From an uncultured bacterium (GTDB taxonomy: Bacteria > Acidobacteriota > Aminicenantia > Aminicenantales > Saccharicenantaceae), in assembly GCA_963827635.1 (NCBI GenBank), contig CAWHBV010000009.1:394548-458547 (forward strand): DNA of 64,000 bases, written 5' to 3'. Position numbers and translations under genes: made by a program. Position 1 is the stretch's first letter, and each line of letters begins with the position of its first letter. This document shows positions 19,090 through 53,236 of this stretch, piece after piece. The notes beneath the pieces are model-generated. The model saw only the letters and a program-made list of their open reading frames with translations, ran no database searches and was not told the origin of the DNA.

Positions 19090-19135
19090 CTCGTTCCTCC
19101 CCTTCTCCGTTTCATGAAAACAGAAACCCGAGTTC

Positions 19136-19175
19136 AAAAAGAGGGCGGGAACGCCTGCCGGACGTTCCCGCCCTC
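19136..19175 (-). terminator. Rho-independent terminator of the Omp85-fusion gene
   Basis: 13-bp stem GAGGGCGGGAACG/CGTTCCCGCCCTC followed by TTTTT on the minus strand. Confidence 0.8.
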
Positions 19176-19189
19176 ACGATCGTCTTCGC

Positions 19190-22100
19190 TTAGAAACCGG
19201 GACTGATGCTCACCTGGAAATGCCAGCCGCGGACCGGCCTGTCCATCGGGTAGACGTAGTTGAGCCCGAGGATCAGGTAGCCGAAGAGGTTGGTCCTCAG
19301 GCCGATGCCGTAGCTGCGCAGGGGCTTGCGCTCGCCGCCGGAGACGAACCAGGGCTTGACCTTGCCGGGGACGGGATTCCCCTCCTCGTCGTAGCCGCCC
19401 CACCAGTAGCCGGGATTCGAGGCGTAGGTCAGGCCCCAGTCGAAAAAGCCGTAGAACTCGAGCGGCCAGGCGCCGTAGTAGCCTTTGCCGAGCCCCAGGA
19501 GGCCGAGCAGCGGGAAGCGCAGCTCGACGTTGGCCAGCATCATCTTGCTGCCGTAGAGGCGGCGTGAAGTCGAAGGCGCTCGAGGGATCGGCGTCGTAAG
19601 CGGTCAGCTCCTCGTTGCTGTAGGATTCGTAGCCCCGGACGAGGTCCCAGTAGGCGATGTAGAGAGGGTAGAACCGCTGGTCCTCGGAGTCCTTGCCGTA
19701 ACGGCCGAGGTGCATGGCCCGGAAGGCCAGGGTGAACGGCCGGATGGGCATGACGTATTTCCGGAAATCGATGTTCACGGTGTTGAAGGTCATCTTGCCG
19801 ATGGCCGGGCTGATCGAGACGCCGAAGTTCTGGCCCAGGATGGGGCTCGTCGCGCCGAACATCCCCGTGTCGTAGAAATACCCGGCGGTGAGGTAGGCGT
19901 AGTTCATGCTCGGGGGCGTGTCCCCGGGCTTGTATTTCTGGTAATCGAGCAGGTAGCCGTTGAGGTCGTAGATGCGCTGGTAGACGGTGTGGTTGAATTC
20001 CTGGATCCGGTAGCCGCCGCTGAGCTGGAAGCGGCTGACCTGGCTCAACGGGTACTGGCCGAAGACGGACACGTCGTAGTTGATCAGCCGGTAGACGTCC
20101 TCGACCTCGTAGATGAGGTCGCCGTCCTGGTAGAAGGAATAATAAGGATAGGGATAGACCAGGCGCTGGGCCGCCGCGCCCCAGTTGAAGCGGGACTTGT
20201 TGTTGAGGTAGGCCAGGACGCCGGACGTGTCGATGAGCCGCGAGCCCGTGAAGGCGGTGGTGACGACGGTGTGGTAGCCCAGCATGTCGCTCCAATAGGC
20301 CGAGAGCCCGCCCGCGCCGTAGGTGCCGTAGCGGTCGACGCCGACGGCGATGTTGGGCGGCGAGACGTAGTCCAGGCCCAGCTTGGGCTTGTAGTCGGCG
20401 ATCGTGAAGTTCTGGTCCTTGGGCAGGCCGAAGAGCGGGTTCTTCAGGAGGCCGAGCAGGGAACCCTCGGGCTCGGTGCGGGGGGCCAGGATGCCGGGGT
20501 CGCGCTCGAACTGGGCCAGGAAGGACTGTCCTTCGAGGGTCGCCGGATCGTCGAGGGCGTAGACCGTATAGTAGCTGTCGAGATAGCCGGAGAAGACGAG
20601 GCGGCCCGTCTCCTGGGCGACGGAGATGGACGGGCTGAGCTCGGTGATGCCCGCGACGCCCGTGTACAGGTTGGTCACCTGGGTGATCTTGGCCGAGGCG
20701 ACGTCGATCCGGTAGATGTCGGTCTTGCCGCTCTGGTCGGAGAGGAAGTAGAGGGCCCGGGAGTCCGGGGTCCACTGGGGGTTGATGTTCTTGCCGTTGG
20801 GGAAGGCCAGCAGCTTCTGGATGCGCCCCGATTCCACGTCGAGGAGGGCCAGCTCGTAATTGCCGACGTCGACCCATTCCATGTTGGTCGAGAACCGCTC
20901 GGTGACGAAGGCGATGGTCTTGCCGTCGGGCGACCAGGCGGGCTGGAGGTCGCCGAACACGTCCCGGGTCATCTGCTTGAGCACGTTGTCGCGAAGGTCG
21001 TAGATGAAGATGTCCGAGACGCCGCCGGCCAGGCCGCAGAACGTGACGTAGCGGCCGTCCGGCGAGAAGGCCGGGCTGAGGATCTCGGCCAGCTCCCGGA
21101 AGGGGATCTCCCGGTCGATCTTGCCGCTCTTCGCCTCGACGATGGTCAGCCCGGGCCGGCCCTTGGAGACGCTGCCGAAGACGAACTTCTCCCCCGTCGC
21201 GTCCCAGGATCCGGCCGACTTGATGAACTGGATGCTCTCGAAGTGGGGATCGATCGCGGTCGAGACGATCTTCTTCCGGATCTTGCCCGTGTCGGCGTCG
21301 GCGAGAAAGAGGTCGATCGAGAACAGGTCCCGCGTCGAGAGGAAGATGATGGACTTCCCGTCGGGACTGATGGTCGGGGCGATGTTGTAGGGATTGGACT
21401 CGGCGCCTTTGAACAGGGCCTTGGCGAACTTGTCCACGGGCTGGGTCTTCTCCAGGACGGGCCCGTAGGCGTCCTGCATCGACTTGTGCCAGTCGGCCGA
21501 GAGCTGCTTCAGCTTGATGCCCAGCACGCTCTCGAGGATGATCTCGTAATCGCCGGCCCGGCCGACGGATTTCATCGCCTTGCCGATGACCTCGTCGCCC
21601 CAGCGGCCGGTGATGTAGGCCCAGACGGCCTGGCCCCAGCGGTAGGGGAAGAACTTGTAGGAGTTGTCGAGCTTCTTGAGCGGAGGCAGCTGCTTGCGCC
21701 GGACGGCATCGCGCATCCACATCGAGGTGTTCGGATCGACGGGACCGATCGACAGATACTCGGCCATGCCCTCGATGAACCACAGCGGGATGCGCAGGGC
21801 GGCGTCGTTGCCCCGGGCCTGATCGGAGTGGCCCATGGGCCATGATGTCGTACTGGAAGGCGTGGACGAGCTCGTGGCCGATGACGTGGTCGGTCTCGGA
21901 CAGAGACGCCCCGTAGGGCAGGACGATGCGGCGCTTGAACGACTCGGTGAAGCCGCCCGTGCCCTCGCCGAGGACCTCCTGGGTGACCGTCGTCTGCTGG
22001 AACTCGGGGCTGCTGCCGTAGAGGATGAGGGGCTGGCGGCCCTTGAGCTCGTGATTGAACATCCGGGACAGGCGGGCGTACCAGCGCTCGGCCATGAGAC

Positions 22101-22302
22101 AGGCCATCTTGACCGTCTCCTGATCCTGGAGATAGTAGTAGACGTCGTAGTGCCGGGTCTTCATGATCTTGAAGTCGAACTTCTGGTACTGGACCTTGTT
22201 CCGGCCGTACCACTGGGCGCCGAGGTCCGGCGCCGCGATCCCGGCGATGAACCCGGCCAGGCAGAGGGTGATGAGGATCTTGGTCAAAGCGGAAGTCCGC
22301 AT
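19190..22302 (-). CDS. Fusion of an MA-clan metallopeptidase-like domain, TolB/PD40 beta-propeller and Omp85/BamA-type barrel; two frameshifts (~21840, ~19555)
   Basis: Signal peptide; GHELVHAFQ (HEXXH) with PLWFIEGMAEY; PD40 repeats SPDGK, PAFSPDG, PAWSPDG, PQWTPD; VRGY lid motif, NVELRFP, SYGIGLR, C-terminal F. Confidence 0.85.
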
Positions 22303-22482
22303 GATGTTCCTCCTTCGATGGGCATATTGTAGCGGAAGACGGAACGGATGGGAAATACCCTCCCGGACGGGAGGTTCTGATGCACGCATAGGTCGAAACT
22401 CCTTTCGACCCCTTTCCTCGGATATCTTAGCCGAATGGAACCGGCTTGTCTACAACGCCGGAAGAACCCGGCCCGTTGCCAG

Positions 22483-22512
22483 TTGACCCCGCCGCCGCGA
22501 TTCGGGTAAGAT
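22483..22512 (+). promoter_or_regulatory. Sigma70-type promoter of the permease/peptidase operon
   Basis: TTGACC-18 nt-TAAGAT ending 12 nt before ATG 22525; no Shine-Dalgarno. Confidence 0.55.
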
Positions 22513-22524
22513 GCCTGTCTCGAC

Positions 22525-23834
22525 ATGATCACGCAAATCGTCATCGTCCTCGCGGTCATGGTCGCCGCCTACGTCGCGGCCAAGGCCGCCAAGCTGTCCG
22601 TCGAGCTCGGGATCTTCGCCTCGGCCGTGGCCGGGGGGCTGGCCGGCGCCTTCCTCAAGACCCCTCCCCTCGGAGAGCTCGGCCGCCATCTCGTCGAGGG
22701 CTCGACCACCTACCTCGACGTGATGCTCGTCTTCTTCACGGCGACGCTCTTCATGTCCATCGTCGACGAGTCCGGCGGCGTCGTCTACGTCGTCCGGGCG
22801 ACCCTCCGGGCGTTCGGCGACAAAAGGGTCCTGGCCCTGCTCGTCCTGATGGTCATCGTCCTCATCCCGGGCGCCCTGACCGGGGCCGGGAGCGTCTCGC
22901 TCCTCGTCGTCGGGGCCCCTGTGGCCATGGCCCTCACCCGCCTCGGCATCGGCCCGAAGAGGGTCGCCGCCATCCTCTTCATCGTCGCCGGCCTGAGCGC
23001 CGCCGCGCCCCCGGTCAACATCTGGGCCATGATCCTCTGCGCCGGCACGGCCATCCCCTACGTCGGATTCGAATTCACCCTGGGCATCCCCGTCCTCCTC
23101 CTGGGGGCCTTCACCGTTCTCGTCCTGGGGCTCAAGAAGGAGAAAGGCGCCTCCGCGGGCCCCGTCGAGCTGCCCGAGCCGCCGCCCGGAATGACCCTGT
23201 GGCGGGTGCTCGTCCCCTTCCTCGTCTTCTTCGGTCTGGTCGCGGCCTACCGGATCTGGCCGTTCGCCACGCCGATCCTGGGCCTTGTCGCTCGAGTTCG
23301 TCATCGCCGCGGCCGCGGCCCTGCTCTTCAGCCCGAAGAGGATCGCCGTCCTGCCGCTGGCCCGGAGCACGGTCAAGAGGCTCCTGCCGCTTGCTCGCGA
23401 CCACGGTCGTCGTCGGCATGCTCCAGCAGATCATGACCGTGACCGGCGTCCGGGGCCTGGTCTCCTTCGCCGTCATCTCCACGCCGCTCCTGCTCCTGTT
23501 CTTCCTGCTGCCGGTCATCATCCCCTTCTCCGAGGGGGTCCTGACCTACGGCGCCGCGGCCATCATCGGCATCCCGCTGATCTGGTACCTGGATTCGATC
23601 GGCTTCCACGCGACGGTCGTCATCGCCGGGCTGAGCCTGCTCTGGCCCCTCGGCGACGGGCTGCCGCCGACGGCCCTGATCGGCCGTCTCAGCAACATGG
23701 TCTCCGGCTACAAGGGAACCTACCGGGATTTCCTCAAGGCCACCTGGCTGCCCTGGCTGGTCATCACCGCCGTGGCCATGGGCATGATCGTCTTCAGCTC
23801 GAAGCTGGCCTTCCTGGTCAAATGGAGCATGTAG
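22525..23834 (+). CDS. Ion-transporter-superfamily permease, TRAP large subunit (DctM)-like, frameshifted ~23290-23400
   Basis: About 430 aa and highly hydrophobic; hairpin motifs PGALTGAG, AAPPVN, LPPTALIG; ORFs 22525..23436, 23285.., 22446..23834. Confidence 0.75.
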
Positions 23835-23853
23835 GCATGCGAGGCACCCTCCG

Positions 23854-24003
23854 ATGATCATGTTCGCCTATTACGTCATCACGGCCCTCCTCCTCTTCCT
23901 GGCCGGCTGGAACCTCGTCCGCGAGAAGGAACGCCGCCAGGACGTCGTCCTCTACCTGCTCGTGATGATCCCCCTCGTCCTCAGACTCCTGCGGTGGAAG
24001 TGA
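23854..24003 (+). CDS. 49-aa two-helix membrane microprotein (absent from the ORF track)
   Basis: Manual translation MIMFAYYVITALLLFLAGWNLVREKERRQDVVLYLLVMIPLVLRLLRWK; strongly GC3-biased codons; fills the gap between operon genes. Confidence 0.8.
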   Translation: MIMFAYYVITALLLFLAGWNLVREKERRQDVVLYLLVMIPLVLRLLRWK

Positions 24004-24014
24004 GAGGGCGCGCC

Positions 24015-25181
24015 ATGAAAAAAGACACTCTTTTCAAGGCGGTCCTGTCGGGAGCCGCCCTCGGCCTGGCCCTCTGGGGCGGGTCTGCCGCTCCTTCATC
24101 ACCGGCACCACGGGGTCCCCGTCGTCAAGGGCCCGGGCGTGACGGCGGTCCTCCGCCTCAGCGAGTTCTCGCCGAAGCTCGCGGGCACGGCCGGTGACAC
24201 CTCCGTCTTCGTCCTCGAAGGGAAGGAGCCCGGGGGCAAGGCCCTGATCATGGGCAACACCCACTGCCAACGAGCCCGAAGGCATGCTCTCCGCCCTGAT
24301 CATCATCGAGAACGCCGTCGTCGAGAAAGGGACCCTCTTCGTCATCCCCTTCTTCAACAACAGCGGCAGCCGCAACACCCGCGCCGGCGACGGCTACCCG
24401 CTCTACTTCGACGTCCAGACGGATTGGGGCGCCCAACGTTTCCGCTACGGCAACCGCGACGCCTCGCCCCTCGACCAGTGGCCCGACCCGGACGTCTACA
24501 TCCACTACCCGGAGCGCCAGCTCCTCTCCTACATCGACGTCCGCAACACCAACCGGACCTGGCCCGGACGCGCCGGCGGGCCGCTCATGGAGCGGGTGAC
24601 GTTCGGGGCCATGGAGCTCATGCGGCGGGAGAAGATCGACGTCGCCGTCGACGTCCACGGCGCCGAGACGATGTTCCCCGTGACCAACTGCATCGTCGCC
24701 CCGGAGAAATCGGTCAAGATCGCCACGTTGGCCTCGCTGACCGTCAAGGCCATGGAGGGGTTCGAGAACCACGTCGAGGCGTCGCCCGCGGGCTTCCGCG
24801 GCCTGTCCCACCGGGAGATCGGCGACCACGGCCCGGCCATGCCCTTCCTCCTCGAGGCGCCCATCCCCTTCCTCGACCAGCCGACGGGGCCCAAGACGGT
24901 CGAGTTCCTCCTCGACGGCAAGGACCCGTTCCTGCTCAGCCTGTCGAAGAAGAAAAAGCTCTTCGTCCCCTACGACGAATCCGGCTGGCCGCTCGCCAAG
25001 AGGGTCGGCCAGAACCTGTCCGTCACTTTGGAGATCCTTCGCCAGTTCTCCAAGAAGACCGCCGGACCGGCCCATCGCCGTCCGCGGCGTCCCCCGCTAC
25101 GCCGACGTGGTCAAGAACGGGGTCGGCCGCTACCTCGCCGACCCGGCCAAGGCCGCGCCCGGCGGCGTCGTCATGAATTGA
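24015..25181 (+). CDS. Succinylglutamate desuccinylase/aspartoacylase (M14-like) zinc deacylase with N-terminal signal/anchor, frameshifted
   Basis: GNTH(A)NEPEG (HxxE across an indel), FVIPFFN, RNTNRTWP, VDVHG, FLLE; hydrophobic N-terminus. Confidence 0.8.
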
Positions 25182-25215
25182 TCGGGGCCGCCCCAGCCCG
25201 CCCCGGGAGGTGTCC

Positions 25216-26941
25216 ATGTCGTTCGACAGAAAAGCGTTCTTGGCCGCTCTGGCCGTCGCCGCCGTGCTCGTCTGCGCGGGAGGCCTGAGTCTCGACCGTC
25301 CCGCCGCCGCGGCCGACGGCTCCGATCCCGACCCGGCTTCCGAAGCCTGCACCGTCATCATGGTCGGCCGCGAGGCCTCGACCGACGGCTCGGTCATGAG
25401 CACGCACGCCGCGGATTGCGGCGTCTGCGATTTCACCTGGCGCCACGTCCCGGCCGCCGACCACAAGCCGGCCGAGAAGCGCACGCTCTACCACATCGAC
25501 CAGATCCGGACCTGGCCGCCCGCCGAGGGCGGCAAATGGGCCATGGTCCTCAAGGACCCCACCGGGATCGAGATCCCCCAGGTCGCGCACACCTACGGCT
25601 ATCACCACGCCGTCTTCGGCTACATGAACGACCAGCAGCTGGCCATCGCCGAGTCGACGATCGGCAACGTCCGCAAGCTCGGCAATCCCACGCCGACGCC
25701 GGCGACGAACATCACCATGCTCACGCTGCTGGCCATGGAGCGCTGCCGGACGGCCCGCGAGGCCATCCGGCTGATGGGCTCCCTCGCCGAGGAGTACGGC
25801 TACGGCTACCACGACGGCGGCGAGATGCTGGCCGTCTCCGATCCCACGGAGATCTGGATCTTCGAGATCATGCCGGTCGGACCGCTGTGGACCCCCAAGT
25901 CGGGCAAGCCCGGCGCGGTCTGGGCGGCCCAGCGCGTGCCCGACGACCACGTCGCGGTCTGCCCGAACGAATCGCGCATCGGCGAGATCGACCTCGGCAA
26001 CCCCGACTATTTCCTGGCCTCGGCCCACGTCGAGTCCTTCGCCGTCGAAGCCGGCCTCTACGATCCCAAGAGCGGCAAGCCGTTCAACTGGAAGAGGGCC
26101 TACTCCCCCGCCGAGGGCTCGGCCGCGAGCTCCGAGGGCCGTCGCTCCCGGATGTGGCGCTTCTTCGACCTCGTCGCCCCGTCGAAGAAATTCAAGGCCG
26201 AGACGCCCAACATGGACTTCCCCTTCTCCGTCAAGCCCGACGCGAAGCTCTCGCCCCAGGACGTCATGGCGCCTGACCCGGGACAAGTCCGAGGGCACGG
26301 TCTACGACCCGGTCCGGGGTCTGCGCGGCGGCCCGTTCAGGAATCCCAATTACTACAAGGGGACCCGCCTGATCAGCGTGCCCAACGTCGAATACACGAC
26401 CCTGACCCAGTGCCGTTCGTGGCTGCCGGACCCGATCGGGGGCATCGTCTGGGTCGCCCTGGGCGCCCAGGACACCTCCTGCTACATCCCGTTCTACGGC
26501 GGCGCGACCGACATCCCCAAGTCGTTCTCGATCGGCGACCACTTCGTCCTCGACCGGGGCTCGGCCCGCTGGGCCTTCGATTACGTCGATTTCCACGTCC
26601 AGGTCGCCTACAACGCGGCCATCGAGGACGTCAAGGCGGCCCGGAAGGAGTGGGAGGACGGGGCCCTCGGGCGCATCGCCGAGATCGACCGGCTGGCCGG
26701 CGACCTCTACAAGCGCAGCCCCAAGGAGGCGGTCAAGTACGTCACCGGCTTCTCGCTCAACAACGCCCAGAACGTCGTCGCCGCCTGGTGGAAGCTCGGC
26801 GACGACATCTGGGTCAAATACAACCACCTCGGCCTCTACGATACCGACAAGCGGCGGAGCGGCCGCATCCCGACGGCGAATCCGGACTGGTGGAACAAGG
26901 CCGTTCGGGCCTTCGATGTCCTGAACGAGCCCGGAAAATAA
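25216..26941 (+). CDS. Exported C69-family dipeptidase (Ntn cysteine hydrolase), copy 1, frameshift ~26270
   Basis: Signal peptide, ACTVIMVGREASTDGS nucleophile motif, MNDQQLAIAEST, LAMERCRTAREAI, WAAQRVPDDH, NESRI, FPFSVKPD. Confidence 0.9.
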
Positions 26942-26951
26942 GGAGCTGTCC

Positions 26952-28688
26952 ATGAAGAACGCGTTCCGATTCAGCGCCGTGCTCGGCGCGATCGTCCTGG
27001 CCCTCGTCCTGGCCGGCCACGGCCCCGCCTCCGCGGGCCAGGCCCCGCAGGCGGCCGCCGACGTCGTCGCCGGCGAAGCCTGCACGTCCATCCTCGTCGG
27101 CCGGGACGCCTCGACCGACGGCTCGATCATGACCACGCACACCTGCGATTGCGGCACCTGCGACTGGACCTGGCGGCACGTCCCGGCGGCCGACCACAAG
27201 CCGGGCTCGACCCGGAAGATCTACCACATTTCCCAGTACAAGACCTGGCCGCCGGCCGAGGGCCTCAAGTGGGACATCTACAAGAAGGATTTCGCCGGGC
27301 TCGAGATCCCCGAGGTCGCCCACACCTACGCCTATCATCACGGCATGTTCGGCTACATGAACGAGAAGCAGGTCGCGATCGGCGAGTCGACCATCGGCTG
27401 CCAGCGCAAGCTGCAGAACCCGACCCCGTCGGCCAAGCTCGACCTGACCATGCTGACCCTCCTCGGGCATGGAGCGGGCCGCGACGGCCCGCGAGGCCAT
27501 CCAGGTCATGGGCTCGCTGGCCGAGAAGTACGGCTACGGCTTCCACGACGACGGCGAGATGCTGGCCGTCGCCGATCCGAAAGAGGTCTGGATGTTCGAG
27601 ATCATGCCCGTCGGACCCCTCTGGACCCCCGAGAGCGGCAAGCCCGGGGCCGTCTGGTGCGCCCAGCGCGTCCCCGACGACGAGGTCAGCGTCTGCCCCA
27701 ACGAATCCCGCATCGGCGAGATCGACCTCGAGAAGAAGGATTTCTTCATGGCCTCGCCGAACGTCGTCTCGCTGGCCGTCGAGATGGGCTTCTACGACCC
27801 CAAGAGCGGCAAGCCGTTCAACTGGAAAAGGGCCTACTCGCCCGTCGAGGGCAGCGCCGTCGAGCACGCAACGGGCCGGCGTCCAGCGGCTGTGGCGCTT
27901 CTTCGACCTCGTCGCCCCGTCGAAGAAGTTCAAGCCCGAGACGCCCAACATGGACCTGCCCTTCTCCGTCAAGCCGGACCGCAAGGTCTCCGTCCAGGAC
28001 GTCATGGCCATGACCCGGGACAAGCAGCCACGGAACGATCTTCGACCCGGTCCAGGGCATCCGCGGCGGCCCGTTCCAGAACCCCACTACTACAGGGGAC
28101 CCGGCTCATCGACGCGTGCCCAACGTCGAGTACACGACCCTGACCCAGTGCCGGTCGTGGCTGCCGGACCCCATCGGCGGCATCGTCTGGATCGCCTTCG
28201 GCGTCCCAGGACACCTCCTGCTACATGCCGTTCTACGCCGGCATGACCGAGATGCCCAAGTCATTCACGGTCGGCGACCACTTCGATCTTCAGCCGCGAT
28301 TCGGCCCGCTGGGCCTTCGACTATGTCGACTTCCACGTCCAGGTCGCCTACAACGCGGCCATCGAGGACGTCAAGGCGGCCCAGAAGGAGTGGGAGGACG
28401 GAGCCATCACCCGCATCGCCGAGATCGATCGGCTGGCCGGCGACCTCTACAAGCGCAAGCCGGCCAAGGAAGCCGTCAGAGTACCTGACCGGCTTCTCGC
28501 CTCAACAACGCCCAGAACGTCGTCGCCGCCTGGTGGAAGCTCGGCGACGACCTCCTCGTCAAGTACAACCACCTCAGTCTCTACAACGCCGAGAAGCGGC
28601 AGCGGACCCGCATCCAGTCGGCCACCCGGATTGGTGGAACAAGGCCGTCAAGGCCTTCGACATCCTCATGGAACCCGACAAGAAGTAA
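26952..28688 (+). CDS. Exported C69-family dipeptidase, copy 2, multiple frameshifts
   Basis: ACTSILVGRDASTDGS, MNEKQVAIGEST, ERAATAREAI, WCAQRVPDDE, LPFSVKPD; colinear paralog of copy 1. Confidence 0.88.
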
Positions 28689-28701
28689 AAGGAGAGATCA
28701 C

Positions 28702-29352
28702 ATGAACAAGAGGATCCTTCCGGTCCTGGCCGCCGTCGCGGTCCTGGGCCTGTCCCTTCTCTTCGCCGGCCAGGCCGTTCCCAAGGCCGGCCTCCCGGTG
28801 CTGACGACCTCGGCCGGGCAGAGCACCGACGTCACGACCCTCAACATCGTCCTCGACGAGGCCGCCATCACCTACGACTACTGCGACGTCCCGACACCCG
28901 AGATGGTGGCCGACGGCGTCGGCCTCGGCGGCCGCGAGTCCGGGCCCGGCTTCCACGTCGAGGTCACGACCGACCTCGACAAGTACCCCGCCGGGACGCC
29001 CTACAAGGCCGTCATCTTCGCCATCGGAGCGAGCCTGAAGGGCATGGGCGCCTCGGGCCTGACCCTCGACGCCGAGGAGGCCCGCCTGAAGAAGCTCATC
29101 GCGCTCTGCAAGCAGAAGAAGATCTTCGTCATGGCCGTCCACATCGGCGGCGAGTCGAAGCGCGGCCCGGCCGGCAGCGACAACGAGCGGATGATCGACG
29201 CCGTCGCCCCCCTGGCCGACTACATCGTCGTCACCAAGGACAGCAACAAGGACGGCCGGTTCACGAAGCTGGCCGCCGCCGGCAAGATCCCGATGACCGA
29301 GATCGAGTACGCCCTGGGGCTCGTCGACATCGTCAAGCAGGTCCTGCAGTAA
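28702..29352 (+). CDS. Exported DUF6305-like protein
   Basis: Intact ORF with signal peptide; PVLTTSAGQS, IGASLKGMGASG, HIGGESKRG, DSNKDGRF recalled as DUF6305 motifs; AAGGAG RBS. Confidence 0.7.
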   Translation: MNKRILPVLAAVAVLGLSLLFAGQAVPKAGLPVLTTSAGQSTDVTTLNIVLDEAAITYDYCDVPTPEMVADGVGLGGRESGPGFHVEVTTDLDKYPAGTPYKAVIFAIGASLKGMGASGLTLDAEEARLKKLIALCKQKKIFVMAVHIGGESKRGPAGSDNERMIDAVAPLADYIVVTKDSNKDGRFTKLAAAGKIPMTEIEYALGLVDIVKQVLQ

Positions 29353-29381
29353 GACGGACCGGAGAGGTCCGTGGCGCCGGG

Positions 29382-51531: not shown

Positions 51532-53236
51532 TCAGAGGCTCATGGCGATGAGCATCCAGAACTTGTCGCCGAGCTCCAGGTATCTCTGGACGGCGGACCG
51601 GGCCATGTCGTTGGTGTACTTGGTCAGGTAGGCCTCGACCGTGAAAGCCTCCTTGTCCGGCGTCTTGCTGGCCAGGATCTCCTGGACCTTCTTTTCGAGG
51701 AGCGGCAGGTCGGCGAAGGCCTTGTCCTCGAACTCGGCGACGGTCGCCTCGACCGTCTTCCGCGTCTGGCCCCACTTGAGCGTGGCCAGGCGGTTGGCCC
51801 GGCGGAAGGCCCAGGCCGCGGAGTCGAGCCGGAATCGGTGCTGGCCGCAGATCTCGAAGCCCGGGGGCAGCTCGGTCGTCCCGGCGAAGATGGGGATGCG
51901 GGCGCTCATGGCCGGATTGTCGAAGGCGAACCAGCAGATGGCCCCGACCGAAGGCGGCAGCCAGCCCCGGACCTGGAGCACCGTCGCGTAGGCGCACCCG
52001 GAGATCGGGATCGTCCGGGCGGGCACGACCCGGGGCGTGTCCGTGGCCGGCGACAGCCCGTTGACGAGGTTGATCAGGTCGCGGGACATCCAGGCGCTCG
52101 CGGCCGGGCTCTTGATCATCTGCGGTTCGGCCGGCGCCGCGGCGGGCGTCTCGCCCGGCTTGGGCCGGGGCTGGGGCCGCCGGACCAGGAGGTTCTTGGT
52201 CATGTCGAGGTCGGTCCCCTCGTAGGGATCGCGGTAGATGGCCAGGACGTCGCGGACGGAGAGCTTCTTCTCGGGCTTGACCGAGAACGGGAGCTCCGGC
52301 ATGTCCATGCTCAGCTTGAGCGAGGGGGCCAGCTTGTCGAGGACGAAGAACTCGCGCGTCGAGAAGGGCTTGCCCCTCCCGCCGCCGTAGGCCTCCCAGA
52401 ACTTGAACGGCTTGCCGCTCTTGGGGTCCCACCAGCCCATGTCCTGGGCCACCTGGAAGATGTTCTCGGAGGCCATGTACCGGTCGGGGTTCTTGAGGTC
52501 GATCTCGGGGATGCGGGGGATGTTGGCCGAGATGCCGACGTGGTCGTCGGGGATGCGGACGGCGGCCCAGACCGCGCCCTTCTCGAGCGGTCCGGCCCCC
52601 ATGATCTCGAAGTGCCAGACCTCCTTGCCGTCGGCGATCGTGATGCACTCGCCGAAGTCGCCGTAGCCGTACTGCTTGACCAGCCCGCCGATGAGCTGTG
52701 ATGGCCTCGCGGGCCGTCTTGCAGCGCTCGAGGGCGATCCGCTCGAGCTCCTCGATCATGAACATGCCCTCGTTGTTGACGAGCTCGCGGCGGCCGCCGA
52801 TCGTCGTCTCGCCGATGGCCAGGCCGTGCTCGTTGAGCGCCGGGTAGGCCGTGTTGAGGAAGCGGTAGGTCTCGGGGACCTGCGGGATCTCGCCGGTCTG
52901 GACGATGCCCCTCAGATCGGCCGTGAATTCCGTGTGCATCCGGCCGGAATAGACCTTGTTCATCGATTTGTCCGGCCACTTCTGGTGCGGGACGATGTTG
53001 ACCCACTGCCGGTAGGGGCCGTCGCAGGTGTGGCAGGTGATGACGGAGCCGTCCACGGTGGCCAGGCGCCCGACCTGGATGGACGTGCAGCTGTCGAAGT
53101 CGTCGGACCACTCCTTGCCGCCCGGCCCGGGCGACGCTCCGGGCGTCTGGGCGCCGACGAGGCCCATGACGGCGATCAGGGCGAGGGCCGCGGCGGCGCC
53201 GCGTCCCAAGGACTTCAGGAAACGTTCTGGATTCAC
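51532..53236 (-). CDS. Exported C69-family dipeptidase, third paralog, frameshift ~52700
   Basis: DSCTSIQVGRLATVDGS, LNEHGLAIGETT, ALERCKTAREAI, WAAVRIPDDH, LPFSVKPE, SAAWAF. Confidence 0.9.

Follow-up and report, generated by a model that had tools for sequence, protein, structure and literature searches.

A conserved module of permease, microprotein, zinc hydrolase and DUF6305 protein in Aminicenantales, a candidate periplasmic cleave-and-import system

The DNA analysed here (the window) is a stretch of 64,000 nucleotides from an uncultured bacterium of the Aminicenantales (Acidobacteriota; assembly GCA_963827635.1, contig CAWHBV010000009.1, positions 394,548 to 458,547 of the forward strand), whose genome comprises 2.9 Mb in 25 contigs and is 81% complete. 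Positions 22525-29352 of its forward strand hold six genes on one strand, encoding a permease, a microprotein, a zinc hydrolase of the AstE/AspA type (hereafter the deacylase), two C69 dipeptidases and a DUF6305 protein. Four of these products, the permease, the microprotein, the deacylase and DUF6305, constitute a conserved core module, and on balance we regard the cluster as probably one copy of a periplasmic cleave-and-import module, in which hydrolysis is coupled to uptake. A preliminary description, made from the sequence alone, had proposed that a periplasmic hydrolytic cascade feeds a non-canonical tripartite transporter, with DUF6305 and the microprotein in place of DctP and DctQ. Of that interpretation, the linkage of the genes, the export and anchor signals and the resemblance of the permease to the large membrane subunit of TRAP (tripartite ATP-independent periplasmic) transporters stood up, whereas DUF6305 as a stand-in for DctP found no support. 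The cluster, with the site ahead of it, is laid out as follows.

22483..22512, forward strand: promoter-like site, TTGACC-18-TAAGAT, 13 nucleotides 5' of the permease start codon; a match to the consensus only
22525..23834, forward strand: permease of the ion-transporter superfamily with a predicted TRAP-M-like fold, about 435 amino acids when read through two frameshifts
23854..24003, forward strand: microprotein of 49 amino acids with two hydrophobic helices, intact, directly 3' of the permease
23994..25181, forward strand: AstE/AspA-type zinc hydrolase (deacylase), about 392 amino acids, three frameshifts; start (23994-24015) and end approximate
25210..26941, forward strand: C69 dipeptidase #1, predicted to be exported, one frameshift near 26271
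26952..28688, forward strand: C69 dipeptidase #2, predicted to be exported, at least four frameshifts
28702..29352, forward strand: DUF6305 protein (PF19823), 216 amino acids, intact, with a signal sequence

The intergenic gaps that can be placed in the window measure 19 nucleotides (23834/23854), 10 nucleotides (26941/26952) and 13 nucleotides (28688/28702), and the five gaps at the intact orthologous locus L074 measure 19, -4, 40, 28 and 33 nucleotides. Judged by hydropathy and N-terminal charge, both C69 proteins, DUF6305 and the deacylase have hydrophobic N-termini, in agreement with the four signal peptides or anchors claimed earlier. The single promoter placed ahead of the genes comes down to the promoter-like site listed above; the region holds three such sites, against a shuffled mean of 0.6. 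The arrangement of six genes on the same strand was confirmed. Their intactness was not: four of the six are frameshifted in the window, a point that the preliminary description underplayed.

Indeed, at least ten single-base frameshifts interrupt these four genes, leaving those for the microprotein and DUF6305 alone intact. When the intact proteins of a same-genus genome are mapped to the window, the frame changes twice in the permease gene (near 23286 and 23392), three times in the deacylase gene (near 24080, 24264 and 25062), once in the gene of C69 #1 and at least four times in that of C69 #2 (27465, 27870-27882, 28025/28111 and 28623). These breaks are errors of this assembly, not pseudogenes, because contigs from other sequencing runs lack the extra bases exactly where the frame switches. 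At 24080, 24264, 25062, 26271 and 27465, one base fewer is found in the contigs of two or three out of three DNA runs, which come from three studies. A base is absent in a single DNA run at 27870/27872/27882, 28025 and 28111, and a single run has an additional G behind 28623, and contigs covering 23005-23440 show two gaps. Furthermore, the same-genus locus L074, which shares 82.5% DNA identity with the window over 6931 bases, has all six genes open, with products of 435, 49, 392, 574, 574 and 216 amino acids. The same kind of breakage recurs elsewhere in the assembly, in the protease gene upstream of the cluster and in the deacylase gene of a paralogous cluster. At the 3' end, a 7-bp hairpin (ACGGACC / GGTCCGT, 29354-29372, forward strand) begins two bases past the DUF6305 stop codon and is not followed by a T run; at position 29372, all three DNA runs have one base fewer. 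Contigs from RNA libraries overlie parts of the cluster; these may stem from DNA carry-over and are hence not taken as a sign of expression.

Proteins and loci nearly identical to those of the window occur in metagenome bins labelled Candidatus Aminicenantes (Acidobacteriota). The source genome itself contains three DUF6305 copies. Besides that of the window, contig C5 carries DUF6305 followed by an intact permease of 422 amino acids, a microprotein of 47 amino acids and a hydrolase (PF24827, E = 5.8e-9), and contig C23 carries a permease-microprotein-deacylase trio 2.9 kb from the third DUF6305. Outside the source genome, 40 DUF6305 loci were sampled in 24 genomes; this trio was present at 37 of them, and the remaining three stop at a contig edge beside C69. 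A collection of species genomes yielded 544 stretches with a DUF6305 relative, the best 80 of which were surveyed; all are of the window's type, 67 with the full set, 12 cut by a contig end and one exceptional (L107). The order permease, microprotein, deacylase is constant in all complete loci of both surveys (37/37 and 67/67), while the other neighbours vary.

A similar picture emerges at the level of whole genomes. Of 401 genomes sampled from the phylum, 26 contain PF19823 and 26 give a match to the permease profile; both proteins are found in 25 genomes and either of them in 27. The two discordant genomes, one with DUF6305 only (G235) and one with a permease fragment only (G074), are 79-81% complete, and both hits lie at contig ends. 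The permease, the microprotein, the deacylase and DUF6305 are a conserved core module, and the proposal that the genes act as one conserved system has thus passed the co-occurrence check, with 37 of 40 loci and 25 of 27 genomes in its favour. Since DUF6305, in one to four copies, was present without exception in the 16 genomes sampled from the order, the module is probably central to the lifestyle of these widespread sediment and soil bacteria, which is based on peptides and dead-cell material. A protein atlas contains a DUF6305 cluster of 768 members that is commonest in Thermotogota; DUF6305 therefore extends past this phylum, perhaps to cultured organisms.

Comparison of the loci revealed three paralogous types of module.

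Type A: DUF6305-permease-microprotein-deacylase, with a gamma-glutamyltranspeptidase gene (PF01019) alongside at 15 of 15 loci, mostly directly upstream
Type B, that of the window: permease-microprotein-deacylase-C69-DUF6305; among 80 loci, two C69 genes occur in 46, a single one in 33 and none in 1
Type C: DUF6305 located 0.8-8 kb off the trio, with an M28 peptidase gene adjoining in 3 of 9 loci

A maximum-likelihood tree built from 37 permeases places each of the three groups defined by arrangement on one side of a branch, with supports of 100/100, 100/100 and 100/98, and within a single genome the paralogues of each of the four families group according to type. Over 32 loci, the matrices of pairwise identity for the four parts correlate with r = 0.80-0.96, the divergence of DUF6305 following that of the permease with r = 0.91. 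DUF6305 adjoins the variable hydrolase. These data bear on the simplest alternative, an operon of peptide catabolism that is co-regulated and nothing else, with a self-sufficient permease, independent periplasmic enzymes as its neighbours and no obligatory coupling. Peptidase genes are indeed common near all three types (an MA-clan protease adjoins the window's type, and M28 and TldD/PmbA occur around type C), and any contact between the parts is conjectural; we nevertheless consider this explanation quite improbable, as the order of the trio stays fixed at every complete locus while the surroundings vary, the four parts diverge together over three paralogous types within single genomes, and no role independent of the permease suggests itself for a membrane protein of 47-49 amino acids with conserved residues.

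The type A modules at L043:15196-16554 and L038:4936-9642 lie inside a conserved same-strand run, with genes for tryptophanyl- or tyrosyl-tRNA synthetase, ScpA, ScpB and gamma-glutamyltranspeptidase upstream and for LytB and ribosomal protein S1 downstream; at L043, a glutamate dehydrogenase gene is found near the module. At a type C locus (L056:12510-17361), genes for an MR_MLE enolase-superfamily enzyme and a class I/II aminotransferase are located between DUF6305/M28 and the permease, a hint that the substrate may be racemised or epimerised. For the M28 protein of type C, assignment as a glutamate carboxypeptidase II-like enzyme was considered and dropped, the M28 domain being the sole match.

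C69 is the variable hydrolase of one module type and lies outside the invariant core. Its earlier inclusion as a component of the system holds for the window's type and not for the core, since the other types carry gamma-glutamyltranspeptidase or M28. Both C69 genes of the window match PF03577, the match of 143.6 bits, the highest, starting at residue 46, and both copies are predicted to be exported because they have signal sequences. The cysteine that opens the mature domain is retained (EACTVIMVG in C69 #1, GEACTSILVG in C69 #2); the module copies thus share with C69 dipeptidases both PF03577 and this cysteine. The NCBIfam C69 dipeptidase model gave 110.5 bits against a cut-off of 250 on a scanned fragment of 363 amino acids, so that the shortfall says little. 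A third C69 gene of the window (51553-53191, reverse strand) is split over two frames, is 32-46% identical to C69 #1 and has no adjacent DUF6305.

The permease is only distantly related to established families. Its window piece matches DctM (PF06808) with E = 3.7e-4 and 19.9 bits, under the cut-off of 23.8 bits, and the intact C5 paralogue gives weak matches to NhaC (5e-7), DctM (3.6e-5, 23.2 bits) and DcuC (3.6e-5); sources annotate the protein variously as NhaC, GntP or TRAP large permease. Since a phmmer search with the permease returned 488 clusters at E <= 0.001 among 1.84 billion representatives, it appears to form a small family of its own. An AlphaFold2 model of the same-genus orthologue, with a predicted local distance difference test score (pLDDT) of 91.9, was compared with known structures using Foldseek. 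The matches included IseQM (9pym, template-modelling (TM) score 0.73), HiSiaQM (8thi, 0.72) and chain M of PpSiaQM (7qha, 0.68/0.69), and TRAP components ranked above an MleN model, DASS carriers and AbgT proteins. Judged by the model, the permease is a secondary carrier of the elevator type with a TRAP-M-like fold, the TRAP membrane components giving the best fit. Two invariant proline motifs within hydrophobic stretches, A161-P162-P163 and P380-P381, could correspond to the hairpin tips of an elevator carrier.

P and Q partners are regarded as essential to TRAP-type permeases. The genome has a sole canonical DctP-DctQ-DctM operon, located at the very start of contig C2 (C2:95-2745, reverse strand), in which DctM scores 245 bits and is accompanied by DctQ (C2:1395-1721) and DctP (C2:1915-2745). 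Profile searches of this 81% complete genome found no spare DctP or DctQ outside the C2 operon, and no TAXI protein. The description of a DctM-like permease lacking its own partners, with DctP and DctQ missing from the cluster, is therefore borne out: the modelled fold is TRAP-M-like, and the only DctP and DctQ of the genome sit beside the canonical DctM on contig C2.

The microprotein is always encoded directly after the permease and has a length of 47-49 amino acids. Its 39 copies can be aligned without large gaps and show two hydrophobic helices, invariant Y6, L43 and R44, and a tail of the form LRLLRxK; the C-terminal end reads VLRLLRWK in the window and VLRLLLVK on contig C5. The microprotein matches no Pfam or NCBIfam family, and its own profile found it in four loci that tblastn had missed. 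Because it is a strictly conserved neighbour of the permease, it is a plausible small subunit, as had been suggested.

Among known systems, TRAP transporters (PMC9352664 and PMC9971032) come closest. The module resembles them in the modelled fold of the permease, in a small membrane protein encoded beside the large one and in a strictly linked exported protein. It differs in several respects: its permease stays under the Pfam DctM cut-off in both copies scored (19.9 and 23.2 against 23.8 bits); its small protein has two helices and 47-49 amino acids, is encoded 3' of the permease and does not match the four-helix DctQ (PF04290); its exported partner is a single Rossmann-like domain with neither the DctP nor the TAXI fold; and it has, as an additional and invariant component, a zinc hydrolase anchored in the membrane. 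Of four TRAP hallmarks, the fold was thus found, whereas a DctM score above the family cut-off, DctQ and DctP/TAXI, three of the four, were not. Next comes the recently described TAXI-GltS pair of Bordetella pertussis, a precedent in which gene linkage and ligand binding were used to argue that an elevator-type secondary carrier outside canonical TRAP has acquired a periplasmic partner (PMC12344293); that partner can be recognised as a TAXI binding protein and its carrier is GltS, whereas here hydrolases belong to the unit.

The deacylase pieces of the window match no Pfam family because they are frameshifted. Intact relatives all match AstE_AspA_cat (PF24827) at E <= 0.01 (35/35), though weakly, the best E being 1e-12 and the window's orthologue reaching 6e-4 and 19.8 bits, under the 25-bit cut-off. 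The HxxE...H zinc ligands and the catalytic glutamate are invariant throughout the alignment (H88, E91, H219 and E285), together with R148, R152, R181, N182 and R185, and a profile search places 2qj8 (9.8e-11) and the DoeB deacetylase 6twm (1.9e-10) nearest among solved chains. The module enzyme therefore shares PF24827, the zinc ligands and the catalytic glutamate with the AstE/AspA family, which includes succinylglutamate desuccinylase, aspartoacylase and DoeB. It differs from that family in its N-terminal membrane helix, one of which is present in every copy, and in being always encoded after the permease and the microprotein; the characterised AstE/AspA members are, to our knowledge, cytoplasmic. 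In type A, positive charges precede the helix, so that the enzyme domain would lie outside.

The DUF6305 protein of the window scores 134 bits against PF19823 (cut-off 25), a family matched by 43 of 43 aligned members, and starts with an N-terminal signal sequence. Its model (pLDDT 93.4) consists of one alpha/beta/alpha Rossmann-like domain of about 185 residues after the signal helix. The polar residues E125 and R128 are invariant, as are S37, G39, Q40, G109, S111, K113, G114, H147, G150 and D184; these last ten sit in this model at the C-terminal ends of four parallel strands. In Rossmann-like folds, this is the position where ligands are bound or catalysis takes place. Members of the window's type have an extra stretch of about 30 residues, absent from the other types.

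Structural comparison placed this domain in no particular family. Foldseek returned nothing under E 1e-3, with SGNH esterases at the top (7c2c, E 1e-3, TM score 0.30), and a structural aligner gave a flat list (best Z 8.9-9.1) of sugar kinases, glycosyltransferase halves, epimerases, a B12-binding domain and two SGNH entries (Z 8.0 and 7.9). No periplasmic binding protein was present among the best 50 rows of either list, and a two-lobed hinge architecture was not seen in the model. A sequence search against solved structures gave nothing under E 0.03, and the protein atlas contained no usable match outside DUF6305. Two assignments were tried with hhalign and gained little backing: S51 peptidase, considered for a seemingly similar spacing of Ser, His and acid (probability 0.7% against 18 S51 sequences, S51 not being among the listed structural rows), and SGNH hydrolase (6.9% against 24 GDSL sequences, with no DxxH block in the alignment). 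Echoes of PucR (12 of 43 members, best E 0.0022), Hpr_kinase_N and DRTGG all fall on one strand-helix-strand stretch and were treated as noise. Prediction of a complex of permease, microprotein and mature DUF6305, scored for DUF6305 as the partner and run with no controls, gave 0.00 and 0.00 and has no bearing either way. A search of 8.4 million papers and preprints, supplementary files aside, turned up no mention of "DUF6305".

A true tripartite transporter, in which DUF6305 replaces DctP, the microprotein replaces DctQ and transport strictly needs delivery by DUF6305, would agree with the TRAP-M-like permease, with the lack of a spare DctP, DctQ or TAXI protein, and with an exported DUF6305 that accompanies the permease in 25 of 27 genomes and diverges along with it (r = 0.91). 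Binding proteins working with other elevator-type carriers are, moreover, an emerging theme (PMC12344293). The properties of DUF6305 itself nevertheless make this reading unlikely: its single domain of some 185 residues has no two lobes or hinge, periplasmic binding proteins are missing from the best 50 rows of both structural lists, and in types B and C it adjoins the variable hydrolase instead of the permease. Longer or fused forms, including a fusion with the permease, were not found among 7999 candidates, which is weak evidence in the same direction. The replacement of DctP by DUF6305, as first proposed, is accordingly not upheld.

The position of DUF6305 next to the variable hydrolase would suit an enzyme, either a serine-type hydrolase or another small-molecule converter, which would act in series with that hydrolase while import proceeds without a binding protein. 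The invariant polar residues S37, Q40, S111, K113, E125, R128, H147 and D184 point the same way, with S37, S111, H147 and D184 placed by the model at strand C-terminal ends, the usual active-site position of Rossmann-like folds, and so do the SGNH esterases that lead the Foldseek list and supply two entries (Z 8.0 and 7.9) of the other. However, sugar kinases and glycosyltransferase halves match at least as well, and the hhalign probabilities are low for both SGNH (6.9%) and S51 (0.7%), so that a scheme of this kind seems somewhat unlikely. For DUF6305 taken by itself, our first choice, though less likely than not, is a non-canonical binding or hand-over role, and an enzymatic role, itself not very likely, comes as a close second.

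In the cleave-and-import module that we favour, exported hydrolases would work outside the cytoplasmic membrane, cleaving N-acyl amino acids, gamma-glutamyl compounds or small peptides. The zinc enzyme, anchored so that its catalytic domain faces the periplasm, would free an amino acid or organic acid beside the permease, which would import the released product. The microprotein could extend the permease scaffold, as DctQ does in TRAP systems, and DUF6305 could handle the ligand on the periplasmic side via its conserved pocket. As to the identity of the product, our best guess is glutamate, aspartate or another acidic amino acid, suggested by the activities of AstE/AspA enzymes and gamma-glutamyltranspeptidases elsewhere.

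Several points weigh against this picture. At the exceptional locus L107, the deacylase, two C69 genes and DUF6305 are present, and neither permease nor microprotein is detectable in the 4.2 kb upstream; M28 is linked at just 3 of 9 type C loci. The genomes are related and non-independent, so that both the counts and the correlations make the support look stronger than it is. For the deacylase domain, the side of the membrane is deduced from charge counts at few N-termini, and these are ambiguous in the window's type. Moreover, the fold of DUF6305 is unlike that of any known transporter binding protein, its structural matches being generic, the substrate is proposed by analogy with the AstE/AspA and gamma-glutamyltranspeptidase families, and physical contact between the parts is at best conjectural.

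The permease would represent a sister family sharing the TRAP-type fold, for which P and Q have been swapped for unrelated proteins and an anchored hydrolase has been added. If its parts cooperate, they would widen the range of ways in which elevator carriers are fed and would provide a function for DUF6305 and for a microprotein that Pfam and NCBIfam models do not recognise. More speculatively, and with considerable doubt on our side, the module could add one more class to the multi-component secondary transporters, which include TRAP, tripartite tricarboxylate transporters (TTT) and TAXI-GltS, with its four parts in one physical complex, cleavage mechanically coupled to uptake and the feeder hydrolase swapped between types. 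The three paralogous types offer a ready comparison for specificity. In the titles and opening abstract lines of the literature on Aminicenantes peptidases, transporters and amino acids, this module does not appear, and the literature search found no paper that joins gamma-glutamyltranspeptidase, aspartoacylase and a transporter in one operon.

On the other side of the cluster's 5' end, a divergent gene (19134-22389, reverse strand) encodes a protein of about 1067 amino acids that has PD40 beta-propeller repeats as well as an HExxH metalloprotease region; in the window, the gene is frameshifted. Its matches to Peptidase_M9 and MA are weak, and its orthologue is found at L074:16755-19958. Past the DUF6305 end of the same orthologous locus, on the opposite strand, L074:7634-9530 contains DUF362, DUF6599 and beta-lactamase-family genes.

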